Assembly (NCBI GenBank): GCA_049692125.1
Contig: JBAVOO010000037.1
Span: 34,299 to 98,298 of the forward strand
Source: Verrucomicrobiia bacterium
GTDB taxonomy: Bacteria; Verrucomicrobiota; Verrucomicrobiia; Limisphaerales; UBA11358
Reading direction: 5' to 3'
Length of the DNA stretch: 64,000 bases
Part shown: positions 767-64,000 of the stretch, in pieces
Layout: every line of letters starts with the position of its first letter
Position numbering within the stretch: the stretch's first letter is position 1
Made by a program: the position numbers and the translations under genes
Notes under the pieces: generated by a model
Database searches by the model: none
What the model was told of the DNA's origin: nothing
Seen by the model: the letters and a program-made list of their open reading frames with translations, nothing else

Positions 767-1933
767 TTACGGCAGCGGCAGGGCAAACGCAAACACCGCG
801 CCCCGCCCCGGTTCATTGCGCGCCCAGATGCGGCCTTTGTGGTCTTCAATGATTTTTTTGCAAATGGAGAGGCCGAGGCCGGTGCCGTGGGCTTTGCCGA
901 ACGTGGCGAAGACTTCAAACAGCTTGCCAGCGATTTCAGGCGCGATGCCGGGGCCGGTGTCCTCGATTTCGGTGACGATTTCCTTTTCGTCGCAGTGAAA
1001 GCGCAGAAAAATTGTGCCGCCGTTGAGCATCATGTCGGTGGCGTTGTGGACGAGGTTGGAGAAGACGCGGCTGAGGCGGCGCGGATTGAACGGGATGAGG
1101 ATGGCGGGCGGTTCGTTTTGCATTTCGATGCGCGCATCCTTGAGTTCCGCTTCGGCGCGGAGGTCGGCGATTAAATCGAGAACAAATGTGCGGTAACTGG
1201 CGGGTTTGGTTTCCGCGTCCGCCGGTTTGCCTTCCGTGAAGATGAGAATGTCGCCGGCCATGTCGCTGATGCGTTCGACCTGCTTGCGGATGCGGGCCTG
1301 GGCCTGGGCGCGCGCTTCCGGGCGGACGTCGGGCCGGTCAAGCGTCCCGGCGGAGAGGCTGATGATGCTGAGCGGATTTTTCAGGTCGTGGACGATGGAG
1401 CGGGCGAAATTGCCGACCACGGCCAGGCGTTCGGCCTGGACGACTTCACGGAGGTAGAGATGGTCGAATTCGCGGAGGCGGTGGCTGATGTGTTGCAACA
1501 GGCCGAACGCCAGCGCGGGCGAGCGCTGGATGAACGAAAGCATTTCGCCGCGCGGAAGGAAATAAACGTCCGTGTCCTTGACCGCGGTGGCGGTGGCCGA
1601 GCGCGGGCGATGTTCGATCATGGCCATTTCGCCGAAAATTTCCCCGGGGCCAAGTTGGGAAAAGACACACCGGGCGCCGGCGCTGACGAGACAGGAAATT
1701 TCCACCAACCCATCTTTGACGAAATAGACGCCATTGCCGGGATCGTCTTCATGGAAAATTTCACAACCGGCGGCAAAATGCCGTTCCTGGGCGATAAAAC
1801 GCAACGCCTGCAGTTCGTCGCGGCCCAGATTGCGAAACAAAGCAATGGATTCAAGCGCGGCCATCAGCGCACTGTATACCAGTTTCGGCAGGTAATTGCA
1901 CATTTTTTTGCAGCGGCGCTCTGTGAGAGGCAC
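767..1933 (-). CDS. cyclic-nucleotide-binding domain sensor histidine kinase
   Basis: 388-aa ORF. The N-terminal cNMP-binding pattern is FRNLGRDELQALRFIAQERHFAAGCEIFHEDDPGNGVYFVKDGLVEI..GPGEIFGEMAMI..RSATA. It is followed by a HisKA H-box (FARSIVHDLKNPLS) and an HATPase_c G-box (DTGPGI..FATFGKAHGTGLGLSICK). The true start is possibly the internal ATG at 1864 (MAALESIALF). Confidence 0.85.
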   Translation of the reverse strand: MPLTERRCKKMCNYLPKLVYSALMAALESIALFRNLGRDELQALRFIAQERHFAAGCEIFHEDDPGNGVYFVKDGLVEISCLVSAGARCVFSQLGPGEIFGEMAMIEHRPRSATATAVKDTDVYFLPRGEMLSFIQRSPALAFGLLQHISHRLREFDHLYLREVVQAERLAVVGNFARSIVHDLKNPLSIISLSAGTLDRPDVRPEARAQAQARIRKQVERISDMAGDILIFTEGKPADAETKPASYRTFVLDLIADLRAEAELKDARIEMQNEPPAILIPFNPRRLSRVFSNLVHNATDMMLNGGTIFLRFHCDEKEIVTEIEDTGPGIAPEIAGKLFEVFATFGKAHGTGLGLSICKKIIEDHKGRIWARNEPGRGAVFAFALPLP

Positions 1934-2322
1934 ATTCGCGAACTGCCCCCGGAACGCCGGCCTCCGGCCCGGCGGATGTTGAAATTCCAGCAGAAACGCG
2001 CCAGATCGGAGATCGGCGCTCCCCTGTGAGCGCTGGTGGAATCAATGGCGACGGTCGCAGACCGCCGCTACAGTGCAAAAGCAAACGGTAAATGGTAAAA
2101 ATTTGGCGTCGTAAAGCCAAGAAATGCTAAGAATGACAGCTTGGATGTGAATGATAACTTATTGACAAAAAGTTACAAAAACGTCACACTGAAACATTCG
2201 GGTAGCAGTACGTTTCTTCAGCGGGGTTCCCCACCCCCACCTCCTTGGCGTCTGCTGCCCGGATTTTTTTAAAGCCGCTTGACGCTTCCCGAAGCTTCTT
2301 TTAACCTTACAGGCTCCATTGC

Positions 2323-52488: not shown

Positions 52489-52593
52489 TTATTGCAGTGC
52501 AACGCCCTGATAAAAACGGCTTGGATAAACCTTTGCGTCCGGGTCAGTAACCGTGAACAACCCGTTCGAGTCGGTCACATTAGTGCTAATGTT
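52489..52593 (-). pseudogene. orphan 3' remnant of a paralogue of the 359-aa secreted protein (C-terminal FYR-type domain only)
   Basis: The reverse strand reads NISTNVTDSNGLFTVTDPDAKVYPSRFYQGVALQ-stop, versus ..AISTNMTDSTGIFSFVDSDATNYPSRFYRGVAPAQQ-stop at the end of 54376..55455. Nucleotide similarity is clear (gataaaaacggcttggataa, gagtcggtca). There is no start and only 34 open codons. Confidence 0.6.
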
Positions 52594-54313
52594 TTAACCG
52601 GAAGAACAGGGAACCGGTCGATTTATTGAGCGACACACTGTTTATCCCGCTGTTGCTGTTCACCGGCCCGGTGTAATCGCCCCAGTTTGTCGTCGTTAAA
52701 TCCGAGTTGGTTTGCAACACAAATCCCGTCGCGGTTGACGGCCACGACACGACGACGGGGTCCAAATTGACGTCCTCCGAGGGGTCGGTGAGCAGGATGG
52801 ATAGCGTCGGTGAACCGGATGGCGCCTGCGGCCCATTCGTCACCACCGGATTGAACGTTGCGGAATTGGTTCCCGATATCCCGTCGATGGTGTAAATCCC
52901 GGTGAAGAAAAATGGCTGGCTGCCGATCTGCGAAGCGCAAGCGACGATGTTGCTTTGCTGGGTGGCGATACTGTCACTGGATGTGCCATCCGGCCACCAG
53001 GCGTTGCCGGAGCCGCAAGTGACGATTTCATTGACCAATTGGGTCGCCGAGCCGTTGGTGACATACGTATTCTGCCCGTTCGGACCATAAATGATTCCCA
53101 GATAAACGGGATCGGCGCTGCCGGTATTCAAACCCGAGTACGAGTAAGGAATGGGCGAGTAGGTCCAATCCAGCGTGTTGCTGGGATCCGTCGAGCTCAT
53201 GGTGAACGACAACTGGGCGATGGATATGAGATTCGTCCCGCCCTTGATGTCCATGCCAAACGTAAGCCGGTTGCCCAGTTCCTGGGCGAAGGCCGGGCCA
53301 AAGGCAGTGCCGGGATCAGCGACTCCCATCCACGACGGGAAACTGGTCACCATATTGTTGGTCACTGAAACCGCGTTCGTTATTTGCTGATAGAATGTCG
53401 GTGACGACGGATCACCATACGAGGAATATCCGTTCAGGATGGCGGTCACGGCATTGGAAGCCCAGGCATTCCAGCTGGGCGAGCCCCACCGGTTCGGGGC
53501 CAGGGCGGGGAAAACCGTGATGGTGATGCCTCCGCTCAATACCGGTCCGGAATTGATCACCACCGGATTGAGCGTTACGGAATTGGATCCCGACACCCCG
53601 TCAATCGTGTAGGTGCCCGTGAAATTAAAGGGCTGGTCGCTGATCTGCGAAGCGCAAGCGAGAATGTTGCTTTGTTCGCTGGCAATGTCGCCGGACGTAT
53701 CATACACCGCCCACGCATTGCCGGAACCACGACCGACGATCTCATTGACCAGTTGCGTCGCCGGATCGCTGGTGATGTAGGTGTTGATGCCGCCGGGACC
53801 GTAGATGATCCCGACATAGGATGAACTGTAATTGTAGGAACCCTCCGCGAAGGCAAAATCGAGCGTATTGCTCGGGTCGGTCGAATCAGCACTAAACGAC
53901 AATTGCGAAATGGAGATCAGATTGGTCCCACCTTTGATGTCGATGCCGAACTGGAGCCGGTTGCCCAATTCCTGGGAAAAGTTCACGCCGAAAATGTCCC
54001 CGGGATCGGCCAGACCGTCCCACGACGGGAAACCGGTCACGATGTCATTCGTCACCGAAATCACACTGGGCGCCTGTTGGTAATAGCTCGGGGACGACGG
54101 GTCGCCATATGAAGCATATCCATTGGCGATGGCGATGGTGGCGTTGGAAACCCAGGCATTCCAATTGGGCGAACCATAGACATTGGGTGCCAGGGCGGGA
54201 ATGACCGTGATGGTGATTCCCTGGGCTTGCACCGGGGAGAAACAAGGCGTCGCAAGGACGGTCAAGAAAATGCCGCCGAAAATCAAACGCATGGCTGATG
54301 TAATTGACGGCAT
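52586..54313 (-). CDS. secreted protein of unknown function with an internal tandem duplication of a ~225-aa module
   Basis: 575 aa with a signal peptide. Module 1 (aa 32-251) and module 2 (aa 262-491) both begin GITITV(I/F)PALAPN and share long identical strings (SYGDPSSP, FPSW, QELGNRL.FG.DIKGGTNLISI.QLSF, STDPSNTLD, ATQLVNEIV, ACASQI). The C-terminal domain ends SLFFRLKH. Confidence 0.85.
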   Translation of the reverse strand: MPSITSAMRLIFGGIFLTVLATPCFSPVQAQGITITVIPALAPNVYGSPNWNAWVSNATIAIANGYASYGDPSSPSYYQQAPSVISVTNDIVTGFPSWDGLADPGDIFGVNFSQELGNRLQFGIDIKGGTNLISISQLSFSADSTDPSNTLDFAFAEGSYNYSSSYVGIIYGPGGINTYITSDPATQLVNEIVGRGSGNAWAVYDTSGDIASEQSNILACASQISDQPFNFTGTYTIDGVSGSNSVTLNPVVINSGPVLSGGITITVFPALAPNRWGSPSWNAWASNAVTAILNGYSSYGDPSSPTFYQQITNAVSVTNNMVTSFPSWMGVADPGTAFGPAFAQELGNRLTFGMDIKGGTNLISIAQLSFTMSSTDPSNTLDWTYSPIPYSYSGLNTGSADPVYLGIIYGPNGQNTYVTNGSATQLVNEIVTCGSGNAWWPDGTSSDSIATQQSNIVACASQIGSQPFFFTGIYTIDGISGTNSATFNPVVTNGPQAPSGSPTLSILLTDPSEDVNLDPVVVSWPSTATGFVLQTNSDLTTTNWGDYTGPVNSNSGINSVSLNKSTGSLFFRLKH

Positions 54314-54375: not shown

Positions 54376-55455
54376 CTACTGTTGTGCAGGTGCAACACCG
54401 CGATAAAAACGGCTTGGATAATTCGTCGCGTCTGAGTCAACAAACGAGAAGATCCCGGTGGAGTCGGTCATATTCGTACTGATGGCCGTCCAGTTTTGCA
54501 TGTCGAATGAAGCCTCGATCACATAAGTCTGGTTGGTGCTCCCGGACAGGGTAATGTCCGGACCATTCGGCGTGGCGACGATTGAAACCGTGAAGGCGTC
54601 GGGAATGTTCACCGGGAGCGGGTTGGGGACGTTGCCCGAAAAATTGAAATTGACCGGGAAATCAGCACCGGCACCTACCATGGTGACCGAGATCTGGTGT
54701 ATGCTGCCGTCAGCGTTGGTTCCGCCATCAACAAAGCTGCTCAGGTCGAAGGAGACCAGCACCGGTTGTGAGTTGTCTCCGTTGATTGAGGGAATGCTCA
54801 CCCCATACATGTACTGGCTGCCGTTCTCAAGGATCAGGTCCGAATAACCCTCGACCTCCCCTTCAAAGGTCGCAGCGCCGGTGTCGGTGTTTACCTGGTA
54901 AATATCGGTGTTCCCGCTGCCGGTATTGCTCAAATAGAGGTTACCATCGGAGTCAAAACGGATATTCTGCGGGTACGGGTCGAAGAGGTTGTAAGGATCG
55001 CCAAAACTCCCAACAAAAGTTGTTTCCCCGGTGGTGGGATCGATCGTGTAAAGGCCGTCCTGAGGAGCGCCGATAACACTCAGTCCAACCCCGAATAATA
55101 CCCCGTCGCTGGGGTCGAAAGCTATGGATTCAATACCTGCCACGCTCAGTGGCGCCTCTGGAGTGACGGCCCCGGTCGTTGGATCGAATGTCACCAAGGA
55201 TGCGCCATTATTGGCGAGACCGTACAATGTGCCATCCGGAGCGTAGGCGATGTCGTTGTAAATTGTACTGCCCAACGAGGAAATTTCGGTGAAATCGCCG
55301 TTCATCAGATTGATGATGCCGAAACCGTTGTTGCCCGTATTGAACTCAACGGCATAAACGTCGGTCTGCGCACGCGCCGACAGGACCAGGCTGCCTGCCA
55401 CCACCACACCCAACACTGCCTTTTTGATTTTGTTTAACATAGACTTTGTACTCAA
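54376..55455 (-). CDS. secreted protein of unknown function (beta-propeller-like N-terminal part, FYR-type C-terminal domain)
   Basis: 359 aa with the signal peptide ..AVLGVVVAGSLVLSARAQ. It has repeated D-G-x-L-Y/F-G-type strands. The C-terminus is LSGSTNQTYVIEASFDMQNWTAISTNMTDSTGIFSFVDSDATNYPSRFYRGV. Confidence 0.8.
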   Translation of the reverse strand: MSTKSMLNKIKKAVLGVVVAGSLVLSARAQTDVYAVEFNTGNNGFGIINLMNGDFTEISSLGSTIYNDIAYAPDGTLYGLANNGASLVTFDPTTGAVTPEAPLSVAGIESIAFDPSDGVLFGVGLSVIGAPQDGLYTIDPTTGETTFVGSFGDPYNLFDPYPQNIRFDSDGNLYLSNTGSGNTDIYQVNTDTGAATFEGEVEGYSDLILENGSQYMYGVSIPSINGDNSQPVLVSFDLSSFVDGGTNADGSIHQISVTMVGAGADFPVNFNFSGNVPNPLPVNIPDAFTVSIVATPNGPDITLSGSTNQTYVIEASFDMQNWTAISTNMTDSTGIFSFVDSDATNYPSRFYRGVAPAQQ

Positions 55456-56039
55456 TTTAACCGTTTGAGTTTTGGCCTTTAATCTTATGCTTCACCAGCC
55501 TCCCTGCTAACCACTTATTGATTTCAGATATTTCCAGTTAGCTGTCTTAGACTGATACACTGAGTGTCTCACAGCACCTCGTATGCCACCATTGTTGTGG
55601 TATGCAATCATTGTTATCCGCAGAAAACGATTCCTTCGGAACTCGTTGATGTGGAAGTAAATTCGTTAAAATCGAGGTGAATTAAACAGGGTCGGCATGG
55701 TAGAATAATAGATAACTACCTTTACGAAAACGTATTACGTACAAAATGTTATTGCAGGCCAGGCAAAATGGCCGAAAATTGCACCTTTTTGCAGGGTAAG
55801 GCGGGCAACGGCATAGTCCGACACGAAACATATGCCAGTTGTATCTTGTCGTCATGTAACATATAAAAAACCCAAATATTTGTCTAAATAATGTACAGAA
55901 CTGTCCCAACAGGTGTCTCATAGTGTTACATTATGAGATAAAATCGGTTTTACACACGACAGTCGTGGGAATTTTCTGATTTTTGTGTCTAAAAATTTTA
56001 CAGAGACGTGCGTAAGAGTCGAAAAGGGTGGCTGGAACG

Positions 56040-57014
56040 CTAACGCTGCTTTGCCAGATGACACGCAGCCCAATGGCTGGATGAAATTTCGCGCAACGGC
56101 GGAACATCCATCTTGCAGCGCGCCTCGGCAACCGGACAACGCGGATGGAACGGACAACCTGGCGGCGGATGAATCGGCGACGGCACGTCGCCCGGCAAAA
56201 CGATGCGCTTCCGCTTCGTTTCGGGATCAACCTCCGGCACGGCGGAAATCAGTGCCTGGGTGTAGGGATGTTGCGGCGTACGAATGAGTGCTTTCGCTTC
56301 GGCCGTTTCGACGATTTTGCCAAGATACATCACCATTACGCGGCGGCTGATGTGCTCAACCACCGCAAGATCGTGTGCGATGAAAAGATAGGCGATGCCG
56401 CGTTGCTGCTGCAAATCCTGGAGCAAATTGATGATCTGCGCCTGCACGGAAACATCCAGTGCGCTCACCGGTTCGTCGCAAATGATCAGTTCCGGCTCGA
56501 CCGCCAGCGCGCGGGCGATGCCGATGCGCTGTCGCTGGCCGCCGCTGAATTCGTGAGGATAACGCTGCGCGTAAATTGGGTCGAGCCCCACGTCCTGGAG
56601 CAGCTCAAGGATGCGCTTTTGCCGCGCGGACTTGCTGTCGGTCAATTGGTGAATGTCCAGCGCCTCGCCGACGATTTGCTCGACCGTCATGCGCGGGTTA
56701 AGCGAGCCGTAGGGGTCTTGGAAAATCATCTGGAATTTCCGCCGCCGCGCGCGCAATTCCGAACCGCCCATCTGCGTGATGTCCTCGCCGTTGAGCAAAA
56801 CGCTGCCTGCCGTCGGCTCGACGAGGCGCACGATGGCGCGGCCGAGCGTGGTCTTGCCGCAGCCGCTTTCACCGACCAGCCCGAGCGTTTCGCCCGGCGC
56901 GATGCTGAAGCTCACGTCGTCCACCGCCTTCACGAATTCGCGGACGCGGCTGAACATCCCATGCTTCACAGGAAAATGCACCTTCAGATTTTTGACTTCG
57001 AGTAACGCGCTCAT
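56040..57014 (-). CDS. ABC transporter ATP-binding protein, OppF/DppF type
   Basis: 324 aa: Walker [10 protein letters not shown], signature [15 protein letters not shown], Walker [13 protein letters not shown], and the C-terminal oligopeptide-ATPase extension with Cys residues ([11 protein letters not shown]). Confidence 0.92.
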
Positions 57015-57967
57015 TCCAATGTTATCTTTTCAAATTCAAGTCCCTTCAAAAGTTTTGGTAGCACCTTAACAAAATGGCGACAATGTTTGATTACAGCATC
57101 GCAAGCAGGGTCAACATCTTCATCCGTGAGATATTCCCATTGTATTTGGCTGGTTATTCCAAGCCAAGCACTGAACGATAAAGAGGAGGCCAATACTAAA
57201 CGTCCCATGTATGTTCCATTTTGACCTTGCTGTTCAAAGGAAATTTCACTTGCGATAGAATGCGAATAGTTGATTAAGCTTGCACCATGTCCAAACCAAA
57301 AATGTGTTGTTAAAATCCATCCGCAACATTTCATTTCAAATGCCAAACTTGGATCCACCTCAAGAACTCGGTCTGTTTCTACACATTCATTGCCAAAGGC
57401 ATCTTGAAACTTCTCCGCCATCCTCTTCAGGAGTTTGCGTTTGCTCATGAATTTAATTTTTTCTCCTGCACGCTTTCTTTCAGCAATTTGCTGTTCTAAG
57501 CTTGAAGGAATAGCGCTAAAGGCGGCACAAAGCCGCGACCGAAGAGCTTTTTCGTCATCCAAATAGTTTTCGCCAAAAATTTTGACCGCAGCCGAATAAA
57601 CATACTTTTGAAAGAGGTTGCGAGCTTCTGCTAACTTTCCGTCTTTTTCAAGCCATTGCACATAATGATACATTCCTTTGATTCGGAAAAAATCATCCCG
57701 TCTTGCGCGCAAAAATTCTTCTTCGGGTGAACAGCTTTCGCCCAAGGATTTGACTGCTTCGGGGTGGAATCTTTTTAGAAGGCCGTGTGCCAAAGTCAAT
57801 TGTTGGCTTTTATCGAGCTGCTGCATGACTTGATACGTCTCCCAAAACGCTCCAGTTTTGAATGTGCGGAGATTGGGGAACGATCCGTCAATTTCTTTCT
57901 GCCATTCCGAAATTGCCCAAAGATAATATCGAATTTCAAATTCATTTTTGGCTTTTTCAAATGTCAT
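57011..57967 (-). CDS. low-GC protein of unknown function wedged between the two ABC ATPase genes
   Basis: An open frame of 329 codons (track 57011..58000). ATG 57967 ([10 protein letters not shown]..) avoids overlap with oppD, while ATG 58000 would overlap its last 22 nt. Its stop overlaps the oppF start (ATGA at 57011-57014). Sampled lines are 37-42 % G+C versus 68 % in oppF. No motif was recognised. Confidence 0.7.
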
Positions 57968-57978
57968 GGCGGCATTAG

Positions 57979-59022
57979 TTAAGTTTTCCAAAACGGGCAT
58001 CTCACGAAACGTCTAGGTTCGACCTCGACCAGGTCGGGAATGCTGTTTGAACATTCCGGTTTCGCAATCGGGCAGCGGGGGGCGAAGCGGCAGCCGGGCG
58101 GGAAATTGCCGATGCGCGGGACGTTGCCGGGAATGGCCGAAAGCCGGACGGCGCCACCGCCGAGCTTCGGCACGGAATTCATCAGCGCCTTCGTGTAGGG
58201 ATGCAGCGGACGGCGCAACAGTTCCTTCGCGGGCGACAGCTCGACAATCTGTCCGGCGTACATTACAGCCACGCGGTCGGCCATGTCGCCGACAATGCCG
58301 AGGTTGTGCGTGATGAGCAGGATCGCCATGCCGAGCCGCCGCTTGAGGTCGTGTAGCAGTTCGAGAATCTGTGCCTGGATCGTCACGTCGAGCGCGGTCG
58401 TCGGTTCGTCGGCCACGAGCAATTTCGGCTCGCTCGCCAGCGCCATCGCGATCATCACGCGCTGCTGCATGCCGCCGGACATCTCGAACGGATAATTTTT
58501 TATGCGCGATTCCGGGGCCGGGATCCCGACGAGTTTGAGGAGACGAATAACCTCGTCGTCGAGAGCTTTGCGACGGGACGGAGCGCCGAGCACCGACTCG
58601 GCGTGATGGTGCGTGTCATCGGAACGCGCCGAGGCGGTGCTCGGCGTTCCAAGTTTCGGCCGGTGCAGCTTGAGCGATTCCTTGATCTGGCTGCCGACGC
58701 GAAAGACGGGATTCAACGACGCGCCCGGTTCCTGGAAAACATAACTCACAACGCCGCCGCGAATTTGGCGCAATTCACCGTTCGACATCTTCAGCACGTC
58801 ACGGCCATTCAATAAAATTTCCCCACCGACGTAATTGGCCGGTGGCGCCGGCACGAGCCGCGCGATGGAAAGTGCCGTCACAGTTTTGCCGCAGCCGCTT
58901 TCACCGACGAGACAAACTGTTTCGCCCGCCCCGATGGTCAACGACACACCGTCCACGGCGCGCAGCGCATCCGGGCCCGTGCCGAAGTCCATTTTGAGAT
59001 TTCTAATTTCGAGCAGCGGCAT
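57979..59022 (-). CDS. ABC transporter ATP-binding protein, OppD/DppD type (carries an in-frame palindromic insert)
   Basis: 347 aa: Walker [10 protein letters not shown], signature [15 protein letters not shown], Walker [13 protein letters not shown], and C-terminal [11 protein letters not shown]. There is an extra segment [25 protein letters not shown] between the Q-loop region and LLKLVGIP. Confidence 0.92.
58581..58649. repeat. double-palindrome element inserted in frame in oppD
   Basis: gagcgccgagcaccgactcggcg (58581-58603) and cgccgaggcggtgctcggcgttc (58627-58649) are inverted copies with 2 mismatches. Each arm is itself a hairpin (cgccgag-N6-ctcggcg). Confidence 0.8.
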
Positions 59023-59123
59023 GACCGCGCTTTGGATGCCAGATTTATGGGGCCGTCGAAAGTCAATTCGGGCACGGCAATTCGGCTTGATTGCCGGTTG
59101 CCACTGCCGATAGGTTCAGACGC

Positions 59124-61256
59124 ATGTATTTGAGATGTTACTGGTTCTTCGTTCTCGTCCTGGCTGCCGCCGGCTGCACCAGCGTTCCGAAACCCAAACC
59201 GATCCCGACGGGTTCGCTGGCGGCGTTTCAGAAAAAGGCGGAGGCGTTCAACGAGGTCGTCACCGTGCCGACGTTTGAAACAACGCCGGATGCCGTCGCG
59301 GCCACCGCCACAAATGTCATCGCCGCTGGCGATGCCGCGCTCGACCGCATCGGCCGGCTCAAGCCCGGCGAGGTGGATTTCACCAATACGATTCGCGCAC
59401 TCGATGACATTGGCTATTCGATTCAAACGCCCGAAAACCGGCTCGAATTGATCCAGCAAACGAGTACGAACGCCGCCGTACGCGACGCGGCGACGGACGC
59501 CATAAAAAAACTCAGCGAGTGGTCGGTCAGCATTGATTACCGCGAGGATGTTTATGCGGCCGTGAAGGCTTGCGCGAACACAAAACCGCAACTGGCCGGT
59601 GAGGACAAAAAACTTTTCGACGAGACCTTGCGTGATTATCGCCGGGCCGGTCTGGATTTGCCGAAAGACCAGCGTGATGAAGTTGAGAAATTGCGCAAAC
59701 AACTGACCGCGCTGGAAACGGATTTTGAGAACAACGTCACCAAGGCGAAACAGCCGCTTAAATTCACCCGGTCTGAACTCGAGGGCGTGCCCGAGGCGTT
59801 CCTGGCACAGGAAGGCATCAAGACCGGTCCGGATGAATACACCTTGATGGCGAACATCACGTTTCATTCCCTGATGGTGGAGGAGAACGCGAAGCGCGAG
59901 GACACCCGCAAGCGCATGATGGTCGCGCAATGCAATCTGGCGCGGGATGAGAACATTCCGCTATTGCAGAAAATCTTGGTGCTGCGCGACGAGATCGCAC
60001 AAAAGCTCGGTTATGCCAGTTACGCCAATTTCGCCACGGAAGTTCGCATGGTGAAGAATGCCGCAACCGCGATCGATTTTGAGCAAAACCTGAAAACGGG
60101 CCTGCAGCCGAAATTCGACGCGGAACTGGAGGAGTTCCGCCTGTTGAAAATCAAGGAGACCGGCGACCCGAACGCGAAAATCTACGCGTGGGACTGGCGC
60201 TATTTCGCCAATGAATTGAAGAAGACGAAGTACAACGTAGATGCCGAGCAGTTGCGGCTCTATTTCCCGTACGAACGCGTGCTGGAAGGTTTGTTCGCGA
60301 TTTATCAGCGTATTTTTGATTTGAAATTCGAGCGCGTTGAACCGCCTTACAAATGGATCGGCGACCTGCAGCTTTACACCGTGTCCGACGCGAAGACCGG
60401 CGAACCGCTCGGACTATTCTACCTCGACATGTTTCCGCGTGAGGGCAAATACAATCACTTCGCGGAGTTCGGCATCACCGAGGGAAAACTACTGCCCGAC
60501 GGAAAATACCAGCGTCCCGTCTGCGCGCTCGTCTGCAATTTCCCGCCGCCCCAGCCCGACAAACCGTCGCTCATGTCGCATGACGAGGTGGTGACGATCT
60601 TCCATGAATTCGGGCACGCGATGCACACGATTCTGACGCAGGCGAAATATTCGCGTTTTTCCGGCACCAGCGTGCCACAGGATTTTGTCGAGGCGCCCTC
60701 GCAAATGCTGGAAAACTGGCCGTGGGACAAGAAGGTTTTGGACAGCTTTGCGGCGGATTACCGCGACCCGAACAAAAAAATTCCACAGGCGGTTCTGAAT
60801 CAACTCAAAGCCTCGCGTCTGGCGACGGAAGGGACGTTCTACCGCCGGCAACTTTCGTTCGGCCTGATGGATTTGGCGTTGCACACGCAAATCCACGCGA
60901 CGAACGCGGATGACGTGCTGCCGTTGTCAAACAAGGTCCTGAGCGAAGTGTCCCTGCCGGTGCCGCCGGACACGGCGTTCGTGGCTTACTTCGGCCACAT
61001 TATCGGCTACGGCGCGGGTTATTACGGCTACGCCTGGGCGGATGCCATCGCGGCGGACATGGCGACGGTGTTTGAAAATTCGCCGGACGGCTTCTTTGAC
61101 AAGACCGCCGGCATGAAATTGCGCTGCGAGATTTATCAGGTCGGTGATTCGCGCGACATCAATGTCTCCATCGAGAAATTCCTCGGCCGGCCGCGCTCCA
61201 TTGAGCCGTTCCTGAAGAAGATTGGCGTGGAGAAAAGTGCCGCCGGCTCCAAATGA
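59124..61256 (+). CDS. M3-family zinc metallopeptidase (oligopeptidase A / Dcp-like) lipoprotein
   Basis: From the internal ATG at 59124, the lipobox is MYLRCYWFFVLVLAAAGC. Zinc motif TIFHEFGHAMH. The overall length and C-terminal GYGAGYYGY fit M3A peptidases. The 330-aa minus-strand ORF 58938..59930 is antisense noise. Confidence 0.92.
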   Translation: MYLRCYWFFVLVLAAAGCTSVPKPKPIPTGSLAAFQKKAEAFNEVVTVPTFETTPDAVAATATNVIAAGDAALDRIGRLKPGEVDFTNTIRALDDIGYSIQTPENRLELIQQTSTNAAVRDAATDAIKKLSEWSVSIDYREDVYAAVKACANTKPQLAGEDKKLFDETLRDYRRAGLDLPKDQRDEVEKLRKQLTALETDFENNVTKAKQPLKFTRSELEGVPEAFLAQEGIKTGPDEYTLMANITFHSLMVEENAKREDTRKRMMVAQCNLARDENIPLLQKILVLRDEIAQKLGYASYANFATEVRMVKNAATAIDFEQNLKTGLQPKFDAELEEFRLLKIKETGDPNAKIYAWDWRYFANELKKTKYNVDAEQLRLYFPYERVLEGLFAIYQRIFDLKFERVEPPYKWIGDLQLYTVSDAKTGEPLGLFYLDMFPREGKYNHFAEFGITEGKLLPDGKYQRPVCALVCNFPPPQPDKPSLMSHDEVVTIFHEFGHAMHTILTQAKYSRFSGTSVPQDFVEAPSQMLENWPWDKKVLDSFAADYRDPNKKIPQAVLNQLKASRLATEGTFYRRQLSFGLMDLALHTQIHATNADDVLPLSNKVLSEVSLPVPPDTAFVAYFGHIIGYGAGYYGYAWADAIAADMATVFENSPDGFFDKTAGMKLRCEIYQVGDSRDINVSIEKFLGRPRSIEPFLKKIGVEKSAAGSK

Positions 61257-62749
61257 GTTCACCGGCCAAATCCGCCGTCGAACGCTGGCCGCGCCAGATC
61301 AAATTCATTGTCGGGAACGAGGCGTGCGAACGCTTCAGCTACTACGGCATGAGAAGCATTCTCGCCGGGTATATCACCGGCGCGGTGCTCAAGGGCGGTC
61401 TCGGGCAGGACGCCGATACCTCCACGGAAATCATTCACCTGTTCGTCTTTGCGAACTATTTCATGCCGCTGTTCGGGGCGTGGCTGTCGGACAAAATCAT
61501 CGGGCGCTACCACACGATCCTCTGGGTGTCGCTGTTCTACTGCGCGGGCCACGGTGTGCTGGCGTGCAGCGATTTCGCCGGCACGGTCCACGGCAAGCTG
61601 CTGCTGCTTTACACCGGCATGGCATTGATCGCGTTCGGCTCCGGTGGCATCAAGCCGTGTGTGTCGGCGTTCGTGGGCGACCAGTTCAAGCCGGAACAGT
61701 CGCATCTGCTGCAAAAGGCCTACGGCGCATTTTATTGGGCCATCAACCTCGGCTCGTTCTTTTCGTTTCTCGTCATCCCCTGGATCAAGGACCGCCACGG
61801 CTACAGCCTCGCATTCGGTGTGCCGGGAATATTCATGGCCATCGCCACGCTCATTTTCTGGCTGGGCACGAAGCATTATGTCCGTGTTCCGCCGAGCCGG
61901 GAGACGAAAGCTGCCGGATTTTTCAAAATTCTTTGGTATGCGCTCGCGAACCGGAAAAAAACTGGTGGCGGCGCGCTGCCGCGCGCCGAGGCCGACCGGC
62001 AGGTCGGCCCTGCCGGCCGACCAAGAAATTTTTGGGACGCCGCGCAGAACCGGTTCAGCGAAAGGGAAATTGACGCGGCGAAATCCGTCCTGCCGATTGT
62101 CCTCGTCTTCGTGCTCATCACGCCCTTCTGGTCACTGTTTGACCAGAGCAATTCCACGTGGGTGTTGCAGGGTGAGAAGATGGTGCCTGTAACATTAATG
62201 CCAGGAACATTCCTCAGCCTGGACATCGGCGCGGAACAGATGCAATCCATGAACGCGCTGATCGTAATGATTCTGGTGCCGCTGTTCACTTTGGGCATTT
62301 ATCCGCACATCGGAAAATATGCGTCGCCGCTGCGGCGAATGTCCTGTGGAATGTTTTTGGCGGCAGGTTCGTATCTCGTCGTCGCCGCGCTGCAAAGGCA
62401 GATCGAAACCGGCGCGCAACTGAGCGTGCTGTGGCAGACCGTGCCGTATGTCATTTTGACCGCCGCCGAGGTTTTGGTTTCAACGACCGGACTGGAATTC
62501 GCCTTCCGCGAGGCCGCGCCGGAAATGAAAAGCATCATCATGAGTTTCTTTTTTCTGACAATCGCATTCGGCGATTTGCTGGTGGTGGCCATCACGAAAA
62601 TATTTTCTGACACGCAAAATCATGCCGCGTCGGTGAGCACGAACCGTTTTCTGCTTTACGCCGGAATGACGTTTGGGGTGGCGATTTTGTTCAGCGTCGT
62701 CGCGGCGTTTTACAAATACCGTGACCTAGCGGCGGCGCGCGGGAAATAG
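61253..62749 (+). CDS. POT/PTR2-family proton-dependent oligopeptide transporter
   Basis: 498 aa: ERFSYYGMRSILAGYI (PTR2 signature 1), FGSGGIKPCVSAFVGDQF (signature 2), 12-14 TMS. Its start overlaps the peptidase stop. Confidence 0.92.
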   Translation: MSSPAKSAVERWPRQIKFIVGNEACERFSYYGMRSILAGYITGAVLKGGLGQDADTSTEIIHLFVFANYFMPLFGAWLSDKIIGRYHTILWVSLFYCAGHGVLACSDFAGTVHGKLLLLYTGMALIAFGSGGIKPCVSAFVGDQFKPEQSHLLQKAYGAFYWAINLGSFFSFLVIPWIKDRHGYSLAFGVPGIFMAIATLIFWLGTKHYVRVPPSRETKAAGFFKILWYALANRKKTGGGALPRAEADRQVGPAGRPRNFWDAAQNRFSEREIDAAKSVLPIVLVFVLITPFWSLFDQSNSTWVLQGEKMVPVTLMPGTFLSLDIGAEQMQSMNALIVMILVPLFTLGIYPHIGKYASPLRRMSCGMFLAAGSYLVVAALQRQIETGAQLSVLWQTVPYVILTAAEVLVSTTGLEFAFREAAPEMKSIIMSFFFLTIAFGDLLVVAITKIFSDTQNHAASVSTNRFLLYAGMTFGVAILFSVVAAFYKYRDLAAARGK

Positions 62750-62751
62750 CT

Positions 62752-64000
62752 TCAGTGGCTGAAAAACTTGTGGAGTATCTCGCCGCCGTTCTGCCAGAAA
62801 ATGATCGCCACGCCCATCAATGCGCCGCCGGCCATCACGCCGGACGCCACGGGAAAGGTGAATTCCTCCGCCTTCGCCGGTGATTTTTTTGCGAACCACC
62901 AGGCGATGACCGCGCCCATGAAAAACAGCACGCCGTAATACCATTGAAAAATCCACGCGAGCCCAAAGCCGGACGCGGACGGCAGATATTTCTCCTGTTT
63001 GGGAAAAATCACCGGCAGGATGGCAAATACGATTCCCACCGCGCCGCCGATGGCGATGCTCCAGATTTTCGCCGGGGCGAGCGCTTCAAAACCTTTGCTC
63101 AAGGCCTGGGCGACGGCGGCCCAGGTCTGCGCGGAGGGCGCGGGAAATTGATCCGAGCCGATGACTTCGGGCTTGTCAACGATGAGCGTAAACGCGAGGA
63201 CGCTGACAACGGTGCCGATGAAAATGCCGGCGAACTGCGCGATAAATTGTTTGCGCGGATGCGCGCCGAGCAGGTAGCCGCTTTTCAAATCGGTCAACAA
63301 ATCGGCGGCGGAACCCGCCGCCCCGGCAGTGATATTCGCGCTCATCAGGTTCACGTTCATGTTGCCGGGATTGAGCGCGCCGAAAGTGAGCTGGGTCACC
63401 TTGCCCATCGCGCTGATGGGCGTGGTGTCGGTTTCGCCGGTAACGCGACACGCAACGAGAGCGAGGGCAAAGGACAGCACGACGGCGAAGGCGCTTTGCC
63501 AATACGGCATTCCGAAGGAGGCATGCGCCAGCAAGGCGAGCGCAACGAGCGAAATTAATTGTCCGGCGGCGAACCAGGACATCGGCGTTTCGATGGATTC
63601 CATTTCGCCGGGCGATTTTGATTTTCGCGAAAATATTTTGGCGAGATCAAGAAACGCCCGGAGCGAAACCCGCCATTGCAGAATCAAATTCAGCAGGCTG
63701 GCGGCCACCATGCACGAGACGCCCAGCCAGACCGACCATTGCACACAGTCGCGGAAACCGGAGCCGGTGATGAGGCCGGCGTGTTGCAGCGCGGGAACAA
63801 AACCCATCCAGCACACGATGCTGCCGATGAGGATGCTGACGCAAACGCGCATCCCCATGATCGCTCCAGACGCAATGAAGATTGGCTCCCAACTGAACAT
63901 CACGGTCCGGCCCACCCAGGCCGGGCCGAAGACAACGGCGTTCAATTTGGTGACGAGGGTATCGCTGGAGAAGGCGTTAAAATTAGCCGCATAATGAAAT
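62752..64000 (-). CDS. OPT-family oligopeptide transporter, C-terminal ~415 aa (5' end beyond the right window edge)
   Basis: NLMSANITAGAAGSAADLLTDLKSGYLLGAHPRKQFIAQFAGIFIG is the OPT signature region. The frame stays open upstream of the track start (63945 is an internal TTG) to position 64000 (..FHYAANFNAFSSDTLVTKLNAVVFG..). Confidence 0.88.
   Translation of the reverse strand, partial: FHYAANFNAFSSDTLVTKLNAVVFGPAWVGRTVMFSWEPIFIASGAIMGMRVCVSILIGSIVCWMGFVPALQHAGLITGSGFRDCVQWSVWLGVSCMVAASLLNLILQWRVSLRAFLDLAKIFSRKSKSPGEMESIETPMSWFAAGQLISLVALALLAHASFGMPYWQSAFAVVLSFALALVACRVTGETDTTPISAMGKVTQLTFGALNPGNMNVNLMSANITAGAAGSAADLLTDLKSGYLLGAHPRKQFIAQFAGIFIGTVVSVLAFTLIVDKPEVIGSDQFPAPSAQTWAAVAQALSKGFEALAPAKIWSIAIGGAVGIVFAILPVIFPKQEKYLPSASGFGLAWIFQWYYGVLFFMGAVIAWWFAKKSPAKAEEFTFPVASGVMAGGALMGVAIIFWQNGGEILHKFFSH

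Follow-up and report, generated by a model that had tools for sequence, protein, structure and literature searches.

A putative orphan immunity gene from an Rhs-linked family lies between oppD and oppF in a Verrucomicrobiia bacterium

In a stretch of 64,000 nucleotides (nt) from a Verrucomicrobiia bacterium of the Limisphaerales (contig JBAVOO010000037.1), called here the window, the two ATPase genes of an oligopeptide-type ATP-binding cassette (ABC) transporter, oppD and oppF, are separated by an unannotated gene of low guanine-plus-cytosine (GC) content, called here X. The locus raises the question of what a gene so precisely embedded does between two ATPase genes that have no permease genes beside them. 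An earlier reading of this DNA, made from the letters alone (referred to below as the sequence-only reading), proposed either that X is a new accessory or regulatory partner of orphan ABC ATPases or that it is a selfish or defence gene exploiting the expression of the operon. The analysis reported here points, with a probability that we put at roughly two in three, to an answer close to the defence proposal: X would be an orphan immunity protein directed against an Rhs-delivered, Tox-REase-9-like nuclease toxin, and sited in a slot of the opp operon.

The protein sequence of X had suggested no recognisable motif, and library searches bore this out. X had no Pfam match (E <= 0.01), no NCBIfam match and no PADLOC match (E <= 0.1); it matched neither the Pfam antitoxin models nor the known anti-phage defence components of PADLOC-DB, and the same scans detected no transposase, integrase, recombinase or nuclease motif. 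When 34 aligned members of the family were considered, there was no consistent Pfam match, and no Pfam Imm family was obtained at E <= 1. A word-indexed search recovered 170 relatives sharing 30-85 % identity, nearly all of them from peat, soil and freshwater metagenomes, the named ones being Limisphaerales or Verrucomicrobiia. When 1.84 billion cluster representatives were searched with a profile, 745 X clusters were recovered with E <= 1e-3, 470 of them with E <= 1e-10, clusters of the family being defined at 50 % identity. Two forms of the protein were distinguished, a long one of ~317 amino acids, to which the window protein belongs, and a short one of ~260 amino acids that lacks a helical insert of ~55 residues. 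Three members (P0089, P0100 and P0109) carry an extra N-terminal domain of ~140 amino acids, P0309 (513 amino acids) is a tandem X-X protein, and in P0241 (647 amino acids) a toxin tip is fused in frame to X.

The AlphaFold2 model of X reached a predicted local distance difference test score (pLDDT) of 91 and a predicted template modelling score of 0.87. It has a bundle of helices at the N terminus, an antiparallel sheet of five strands, and a long helix at the C terminus. A fold comparison had been advised from the sequence alone, and Foldseek with this model returned nothing significant from PDB or BFVD; a match of the X profile to a sucrose-phosphate-synthase-like PDB sequence (42 residues, E 2e-4) was judged spurious. 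At the invariant positions (L, W, T, Y, S, F, L, L, G) the residues are hydrophobic or aromatic, a set that does not look catalytic. X is a real protein under purifying selection: the ratio of non-synonymous to synonymous divergence (dN/dS) was 0.14 in comparison with the X of locus L118 and 0.21 in comparison with that of L026 (the loci compared carry L numbers), and the window protein is identical on 11 contigs obtained from several samples.

The genes that accompany the family are those from which a function can be proposed. Contexts of X were gathered from 13 loci in genomes and 80 in metagenomes, together with exact protein look-ups, and the flanking open reading frames (ORFs) were clustered. 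The largest neighbour cluster comprised 23 loci in which a homologous ORF on the same strand ends just 5' of X. These ORFs encode RHS_repeat proteins (Pfam E 1e-7 to 7e-81), the longest exceeding 2,600 amino acids. Alignment of their last 260 residues revealed the end of the Rhs core, YYxRARYYxPxxGRFWTMD ... SLHKYLYCQxxPVNxxDPSG, followed by a conserved tip of ~180 amino acids with the motifs GxxxH (G-x-A-V-H), FPDL(V/T)D and (V/I)YEIKP, in which PDL and YEIKP are invariant. The tip matched Tox-REase-9 (PF15650) with E values of 4e-6 to 9e-3, the best score, 27.3 bits, being exactly the cut-off, and a precomputed PF15650 match exists for eight of the 11 database homologues of the tip, one of which is named RHS repeat-associated protein. 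Tox-REase-9 has been described as a toxin of the restriction-endonuclease fold with the motifs GxxxH, E, D, ELKP and YxxE and a linkage to RHS repeats (PMC3482391); judged by its motifs, the candidate nuclease tip found beside X fits this description.

A census of 63 non-redundant full-length X genes was then made, 55 of which were informative, the other eight having too little upstream sequence. The gene directly 5' of X encoded an Rhs C-terminal toxin domain in 20 of the 55 informative contexts, X being placed directly 3' of it and on the same strand, as is looked for in an immunity gene; it was moxR in 11, oppD in four and another gene in the remaining 20. The gap between the toxin stop and X measured 2-68 nt in 16 of 18 pairs. 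The pairwise identities of X and of the toxin tip were strongly correlated (Pearson 0.91, Mantel p = 2e-4, 13 non-redundant pairs). Many of the ORFs lying 5' of X encode truncated tips only, of 67-260 amino acids (L044, L061, L004, L020 and L021), and orphan modules of a toxin tip with its immunity gene are typical of rhs loci. L004 moreover contains an array of small genes, flanked by transposases, that includes a SUKH/SMI1_KNR4 immunity gene, and L046 carries three tandem X paralogues. Linkage, co-variation, modules, arrays and fusions amount to the signature by which comparative genomics usually recognises an immunity protein. At the level of the family, it is very probable on this evidence that X acts in the cytoplasm, where it binds the Tox-REase-9-like nuclease tip of an Rhs toxin and blocks it; the family would thereby neutralise a PD-(D/E)xK nuclease tip borne by the Rhs polymorphic toxins of Verrucomicrobiota from soil and peat.

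In the window, the order oppD-X-oppF on the minus strand and the identities of the two ATPases (ABC_tran and oligo_HPY domains; NF008453) were as the sequence-only reading had given them. So was the ATGA at which the stop of X overlaps the start of oppF, the right junction reading ...ACA TTG GA ATGA GCG.... The left junction reads ...TGG AAA ACT TAA CTAATGCCGCC ATG ACA TTT GAA..., and its type of spacer is shared by L118, L026 and, outside an opp context, L027. Two starts had been proposed for X, ATG 57967 and ATG 58000, within an ORF that the mechanical list places at 57011-58000 (-). Only the first is retained, because all of the 170 or more homologues start at the MTF... position, where window X starts MTFEKAK in the family alignment, and because gene calls on 11 independent contigs give a protein of 318 amino acids; ATG 58000 is ruled out on both counts. 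The contrast in composition also held (GC 0.41 for X against 0.62 for oppD and 0.61 for oppF), the 68 % attributed to oppF being a local value. The X family as a whole averages 0.46 against 0.56 in its flanks over 56 locus rows, and this low GC upholds the proposal that X is foreign to the operon, into which it is spliced with the geometry of translational coupling.

A scan for promoters and terminators between the three genes gave nothing above shuffled expectation, and X is therefore likely to be co-transcribed with oppD and oppF. No inverted or direct repeats were found bracketing window X, and the 64 kb contained no second X and no Rhs gene. As the gene preceding window X is oppD and not one for a toxin domain, this copy is an orphan. 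It is fairly likely, if less so than the function proposed for the family, that window X serves as an orphan antidote whose transcription is shared with oppD and oppF, whose translation depends on proximity or coupling, and which protects against the toxins of neighbours. The gene would be transcribed from the opp promoter; its translation would be coupled by a start 11 nt past the oppD stop and by a TGA overlapping the oppF ATG; and an antidote made constitutively in this way would confer resistance to Rhs attack by neighbouring cells. The proposal of a selfish or defence gene that exploits the expression of the operon comes close to this evidence.

Several points weigh against this interpretation. 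What is observed is the anatomy of the locus, the linkage of the family to the toxin tip and its co-variation with it, the changing content of the slot, and purifying selection on all three genes; that X binds and neutralises the toxin, is co-transcribed with opp and confers protection is inferred, and expression from the opp promoter is deduced from the gene geometry only. The nuclease fold of the tip rests on motifs and on Pfam matches at or below the cut-off, and the AlphaFold2 model of the tip, computed from a 10-sequence alignment, had a pLDDT of 36. Co-variation of adjoining genes can arise by shared inheritance alone. The published immunity family of Tox-REase-9 is Imm54 (Zhang et al. 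2012, PMC3482391), not X. More than half of the X genes lie away from any toxin, and in divergent lineages 11 of them keep a fixed place between moxR and DUF58, so that a second role of a housekeeping type is possible. Finally, the orphan status of window X holds for the 64 kb window; a matching Rhs toxin elsewhere in the genome would mean a relocated gene.

The contexts without a toxin are diverse. The moxR-X-DUF58 arrangement is the second recurrent one (AAA_3 E 1e-64 for MoxR; 188 bits for DUF58), X being separated from its neighbours by a few to 55 nt. Solitary copies also follow genes for a purine-nucleoside-phosphorylase-type protein (8-nt gap), HPP (before mutY), PolX, DUF520 (7-nt gap), GFO/IDH/MocA oxidoreductases and an IS66 transposase, and one copy precedes tgt. 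Others stand beside a RelE/Xre pair or beside an ORF6N gene near a relaxase, and two genomes have two copies each. Given this variety of neighbours, no ATPase-specific function of X can be read from its two ATPase contexts. In some moxR-X-DUF58 loci, X is bracketed exactly by inverted repeats that are up to 41 nt long and imperfect (78-89 % complementarity; GAAGGCAGAAGGATGAATGAAGAATGCAGAATGAA ... TTCTTCATTCTGCATTCATAATTCTGCCTTC; Table 1). These repeats could be the ends of a passenger-carrying unit resembling a miniature inverted-repeat transposable element (MITE), or an RNA stem bridging the genes of the operon; they are absent from window X and from other moxR-linked copies.

A survey of whether the oppD-X-oppF arrangement recurs, as had been advised, showed that it does. 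X-centred and oppD-centred contexts placed X after oppD in five distinct lineages, though others hold a different cargo or none. Besides the window strain (11 contigs, X 100 % identical), these are L118 (X 85 % identical to window X; oppF truncated), L026 (61 %), L019 (37 %, short form; oppC upstream of oppD) and L070 (37 %, short form; oppF truncated). OppD is 81-93 % identical across the lineages compared for slot content, X carriers included, and the lineages that have no X have an OppD 85-93 % identical to that of the window. The latter carry at the same place a PP2C_2 gene (L124-128; 28.6 bits, cut-off 24), a gene for a 151-amino-acid Mrr_N-like protein (L108-117; E 7e-5, below the cut-off), one for a 119-amino-acid DUF4365-like protein (L107; weak match), an EVE-HNH gene (L106), or a gene for a membrane protein of 107 amino acids (L119-123; L119:6034-6357) with a weak SdpI/YfhL-like match (E 0.003, below the cut-off). 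Since Bacillus uses SdpI as an immunity protein, the 107-amino-acid cargo may be immunity-related as well. L105 has no cargo, the TGA of oppD overlapping the ATG of a remnant of the oppF 5' end.

It should be noted that L105 also contains an IS200-type (Y1_Tnp) transposase gene with hairpins like repetitive extragenic palindromic (REP) sequences, located 25 nt into oppF, and that oppF stays intact because its 5' end is duplicated (L105:9044-9940). Remnants of this same insertion that lack the transposase lie 5' of oppF in L026 (6061-6345) and L108 (7516-7731), and in L108 the ATG of the remnant is mutated to GTG. The "genes" of 112 amino acids called in L105 and of 72 amino acids called in L108 are a duplicate of the oppF 5' end joined to REP-like sequence and were discarded as gene-caller artefacts.

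The right end of the cargo is shared. Its stop is the TGA of the oppF ATGA in the window, L118, L026, L019 and L070, which carry X, and likewise in L108, L119 and L124, so that four unrelated cargo types have this geometry in common; the left ends differ by a few oppD codons. The X alleles of the slot are not each other's closest relatives. That of L026 is 83 % identical to the moxR-linked X of L032, versus 61 % to window X, the nucleotide homology between L026 and L032 ending at the ORF ends of X, and that of L070 is nearest to an Rhs-linked X. Between the window and L118, synonymous divergence (dS) was 0.54 for X and 0.80 for oppD, which is consistent with vertical descent of this pair. By contrast, the dS of X exceeded that of its flanks in the comparisons with L026 (1.29 versus 0.60 for oppD) and L019 (2.2 versus 0.83-0.91), pointing to allele replacement or independent acquisition. 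X is intact in L118 and L070 despite the truncated oppF. The oppD|oppF junction is thus a hypervariable slot in this Limisphaerales clade. In our reading, it tolerates and repeatedly receives small foreign genes, most of which are trimmed to ATGA by selection for the coupling of oppF.

A stronger form of this idea, which we consider unlikely, is that oppD|oppF, and likewise moxR|DUF58, are dedicated operon slots in which single promoterless conflict genes are swapped ORF-precisely by an undescribed mechanism. It is suggested by the four cargo families that end on a TGA overlapping the oppF ATG, by the homology between X copies of different slots, which stops at the ORF ends, and by the ~40-nt inverted repeats that flank X in part of the moxR slots and might mark the termini of a passenger-carrying vehicle. 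The element with a tyrosine integrase and a Prim-Pol gene found in L106 was considered as an agent targeting the slot and rejected, as the integrase adjoins the tRNA-Arg(CCT) gene 3' of the oppF remnant and not the slot.

A rival reading is that X is itself, or is the passenger of, a small selfish mobile unit inserting ORF-precisely between co-directional genes, its product serving the element, for instance in addiction or targeting. Solitary copies wedged 7-55 nt behind many unrelated genes, homology confined to the ORF, a persistently low GC content, several copies per genome and the imperfect inverted repeats of 38-41 nt that bracket X exactly in some moxR slots speak for it. However, X contains no recombinase domain and no motif of a transposase, integrase or nuclease, the residues invariant in the family do not look catalytic, the window copy lacks bracketing repeats of either kind, and the integrase of L106 sits at a tRNA gene instead of the slot. 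The linkage to the toxin tip and the co-variation with it would also be left unexplained, whereas mobility is compatible with an immunity function, immunity genes often being mobile cargo. A selfish unit of this kind is improbable as an explanation of X.

There is still less reason to see in X the decaying remnant of an old insertion, devoid of current function and tolerated since the translation of oppF is unbroken. The opp locus is indeed eroding, oppABC being lost in the window, L107 and L026 and oppF truncated in L118, L070 and L119, and the slot gathers assorted DNA including IS200/REP debris. Yet the ORF of X is intact and its fold confidently predicted, its dN/dS (0.14-0.21) is as low as those of oppD and oppF, the protein is the same in the 11 contigs from different samples, and the family is conserved over its 745 clusters; this makes a remnant very unlikely. 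Least credible of all is the proposal that P-loop ATPases (OppD/OppF here, MoxR elsewhere) have in X an accessory or regulatory subunit whose toxin linkage is secondary, for although X is under purifying selection and lies in tight coupling between the two ATPase genes, follows a MoxR AAA+ ATPase gene and precedes DUF58 at 11 more loci, and accompanies an ATPase pair whose lack of permeases makes an unusual partner conceivable, only five of some 56 informative contexts adjoin oppD, X does not consistently co-occur with transporter genes and also follows the unrelated genes listed above (purine nucleoside phosphorylase, HPP, PolX, DUF520, GFO/IDH/MocA and IS66 transposase), the slot of siblings with 81-93 % identical OppD and OppF holds unrelated cargo or none, X persists where oppF is truncated, its slot alleles are polyphyletic, and its commonest partner, with which it co-varies, is the Rhs toxin tip.

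How the two ATPase genes came to be alone can be followed in the relatives. That no permease or binding-protein gene lies within 5 kb had been noticed from the sequence; a tblastn search with three proteins of a close relative (OppA, OppB and OppC) extended this to the whole window, where no match was obtained. Hence, of the components of an Opp/Dpp importer, the window has the two ATPases with ABC_tran and oligo_HPY domains and no adjoining OppA, OppB or OppC genes. The relatives share the upstream synteny (GreA-like, RsmB, short-chain dehydrogenase and M50 peptidase genes). In L105, L106 and L119, oppA(-), oppB and oppC precede oppD; L108 has a POT gene (-), a fragment of 204 amino acids of the M3 peptidase gene (-), oppA(-), oppB and oppC; and in L124 an M3 gene (-) is followed by permease and binding-protein genes. 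In the window, L107 and L026, the M3 gene, described as minus-strand relative to oppD in these comparisons, abuts oppD directly, and the M3 gene of the window occupies the site of oppA-oppB-oppC in the relatives. Because these keep oppABC before oppD in shared synteny, the window lineage lost oppABC by deletion, which left the ATPase pair orphaned.

Both ATPase genes remain under purifying selection (dN/dS 0.08-0.17 for oppD and 0.06-0.17 for oppF across comparisons; 0.14 and 0.12 between the window and L107, which both lack oppABC), and the pair therefore probably serves permeases encoded elsewhere. In other lineages a truncated oppF lies beside a tRNA-Arg(CCT) gene. One sub-lineage retains an oppF remnant of ~110 nt followed by this tRNA gene (L119:6354-6630; L070:1630-1907; L106:9891-10127), its oppABC-oppD part being intact, so that one ATPase was lost rather than the permeases. 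Erosion of the opp locus thus takes a different course from one lineage to another.

The features of the region are collected in Table 1. The divergent M3 peptidase gene upstream and the AT-rich non-coding DNA downstream had both been recognised from the sequence. The flanking ATPases each combine ABC_tran with oligo_HPY, a domain specific to Opp/Dpp proteins; the best NCBIfam models were DppD/OppD for OppD and DppF/OppF for OppF, the latter scoring 426 bits with NF008453 (cut-off 408). OppD carries a low-complexity insertion of ~30 amino acids inside its nucleotide-binding domain (residues ~113-150); orthologues measure 318-320 amino acids without the insertion and 340-394 with variable versions of it. 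The POT/PTR2 gene is part of a peptide-use neighbourhood with the M3 peptidase gene, and the full OPT protein has 651 amino acids in longer contigs of the same strain (L006).

Table 1. Positions of the features of the oppD-X-oppF region in the window, and of inverted repeats around X at other loci
Feature	Position	Strand	Remarks
X, putative orphan immunity gene	57011..57967	-	318 aa, unannotated family
Left junction	57968..57981	-	oppD stop TAA (57979-57981) + 11-nt spacer CTAATGCCGCC; read directly
Right junction	57011..57014	-	ATGA, X stop TGA overlapping oppF ATG; read directly
oppD/dppD-type ABC ATPase gene	57979..59022	-	347 aa, intact; ABC_tran + oligo_HPY
oppF/dppF-type ABC ATPase gene	56040..57014	-	324 aa, intact; ABC_tran + oligo_HPY
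M3 oligopeptidase gene, divergent, abuts oppD	59091..61256	+	Peptidase_M3 E 8e-117
POT/PTR2 peptide transporter gene	61253..62749	+	PTR2 E 2e-89
OPT oligopeptide transporter gene	62752..64000	-	OPT E 9e-58; 5' part beyond window
AT-rich non-coding stretch 3' of oppF	55456..56039	.	584 nt, GC 0.37-0.45; conserved
Inverted repeats around X, L067	243-283 / 1082-1122		
Inverted repeats around X, L071	1388-1425 / 2201-2238		
Inverted repeats around X, L033	815-832 / 1801-1818		

The AT-rich stretch downstream of oppF contained no convincing ORF, and an Rfam scan of 55300-59300 gave no credible match. It is 92 % identical to its counterpart in L124 despite a synonymous divergence of 0.4-0.6 in the flanking genes, and for that reason looks constrained; it may serve the downstream DUF6923 gene as a leader with a regulatory role or as a non-coding RNA. 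Further along, at 52586-54313 (-), the window encodes a protein of 575 amino acids that has no Pfam match and contains an internal tandem duplication, its two halves of ~280 amino acids each starting GITITV(I/F)PALAPN.... The length of this protein varies among contigs of the same strain (428 amino acids in L006, 575 in L007, two ORFs in L010).

These results provide a functional hypothesis for a hypothetical family of 745 clusters, mostly from peat and soil Verrucomicrobiota, and suggest that Rhs-mediated conflict is common in this abundant and largely uncultured phylum. They further indicate that a gene tightly coupled within an operon need not be a subunit of the machine that the operon encodes, and that the stop/start overlap between two conserved genes can be a recurrently reused slot for small conflict genes, which is an uncommon pattern. 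If the idea of a dedicated slot mechanism were true, Verrucomicrobiota would plug immunity and defence genes into constitutively expressed operons.

Compared with known systems, the tips linked to X are like Tox-REase-9 toxins (PF15650, GxxxH, D, E[IL]KP, linkage to RHS), whereas X is not the Imm54 of that system (PMC3482391), 34 members having no Imm match, and with its 250-330 amino acids, helical bundle and five-stranded sheet it is large for an immunity protein. The family behaves like Rhs toxin/immunity modules in lying directly 3' of a variable tip past the core-end motif, in co-varying with that tip, and in its truncated tips and arrays; the window copy differs from them in being alone, far from rhs, and start/stop-coupled in a housekeeping operon, and the family in being held by no library. 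Known cases are the orphan pairs of rhs-CT and immunity genes in Salmonella Typhimurium (PMC3967940) and the exchangeable or orphan immunity proteins of Serratia Rhs effectors (PMC10539506); orphan immunity genes are regarded as protective against non-self toxins.

The rapidly evolving orphan immunity genes of gut Bacteroidales (PMC12247911) resemble X in having no cognate toxin, in the quick turnover of alleles, in exchange and in a presumed benefit in dense communities. They differ in residing in dedicated clusters or mobile elements and in being directed against effectors of the type VI secretion system, whereas X is single, sits in conserved operons (oppD|oppF and moxR|DUF58) and has no recombinase associated with it. 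The oppD|oppF slot, for its part, is like the core-gene hotspots that house defence or replacement islands: its flanks are conserved, its content differs among close relatives, and this content is biased towards conflict-type genes (immunity, Mrr-like, EVE-HNH). It is unlike them in lying inside an operon at a stop/start overlap, in receiving one small gene at a time and in usually keeping the ATGA coupling. The sequence-only reading would have been overturned by an assignment of X to a known family; no library holds the family, and what X maps to is a known functional class. X is most likely an immunity family that is new to the standard catalogues and falls within the familiar class of Rhs immunity and orphan immunity proteins.

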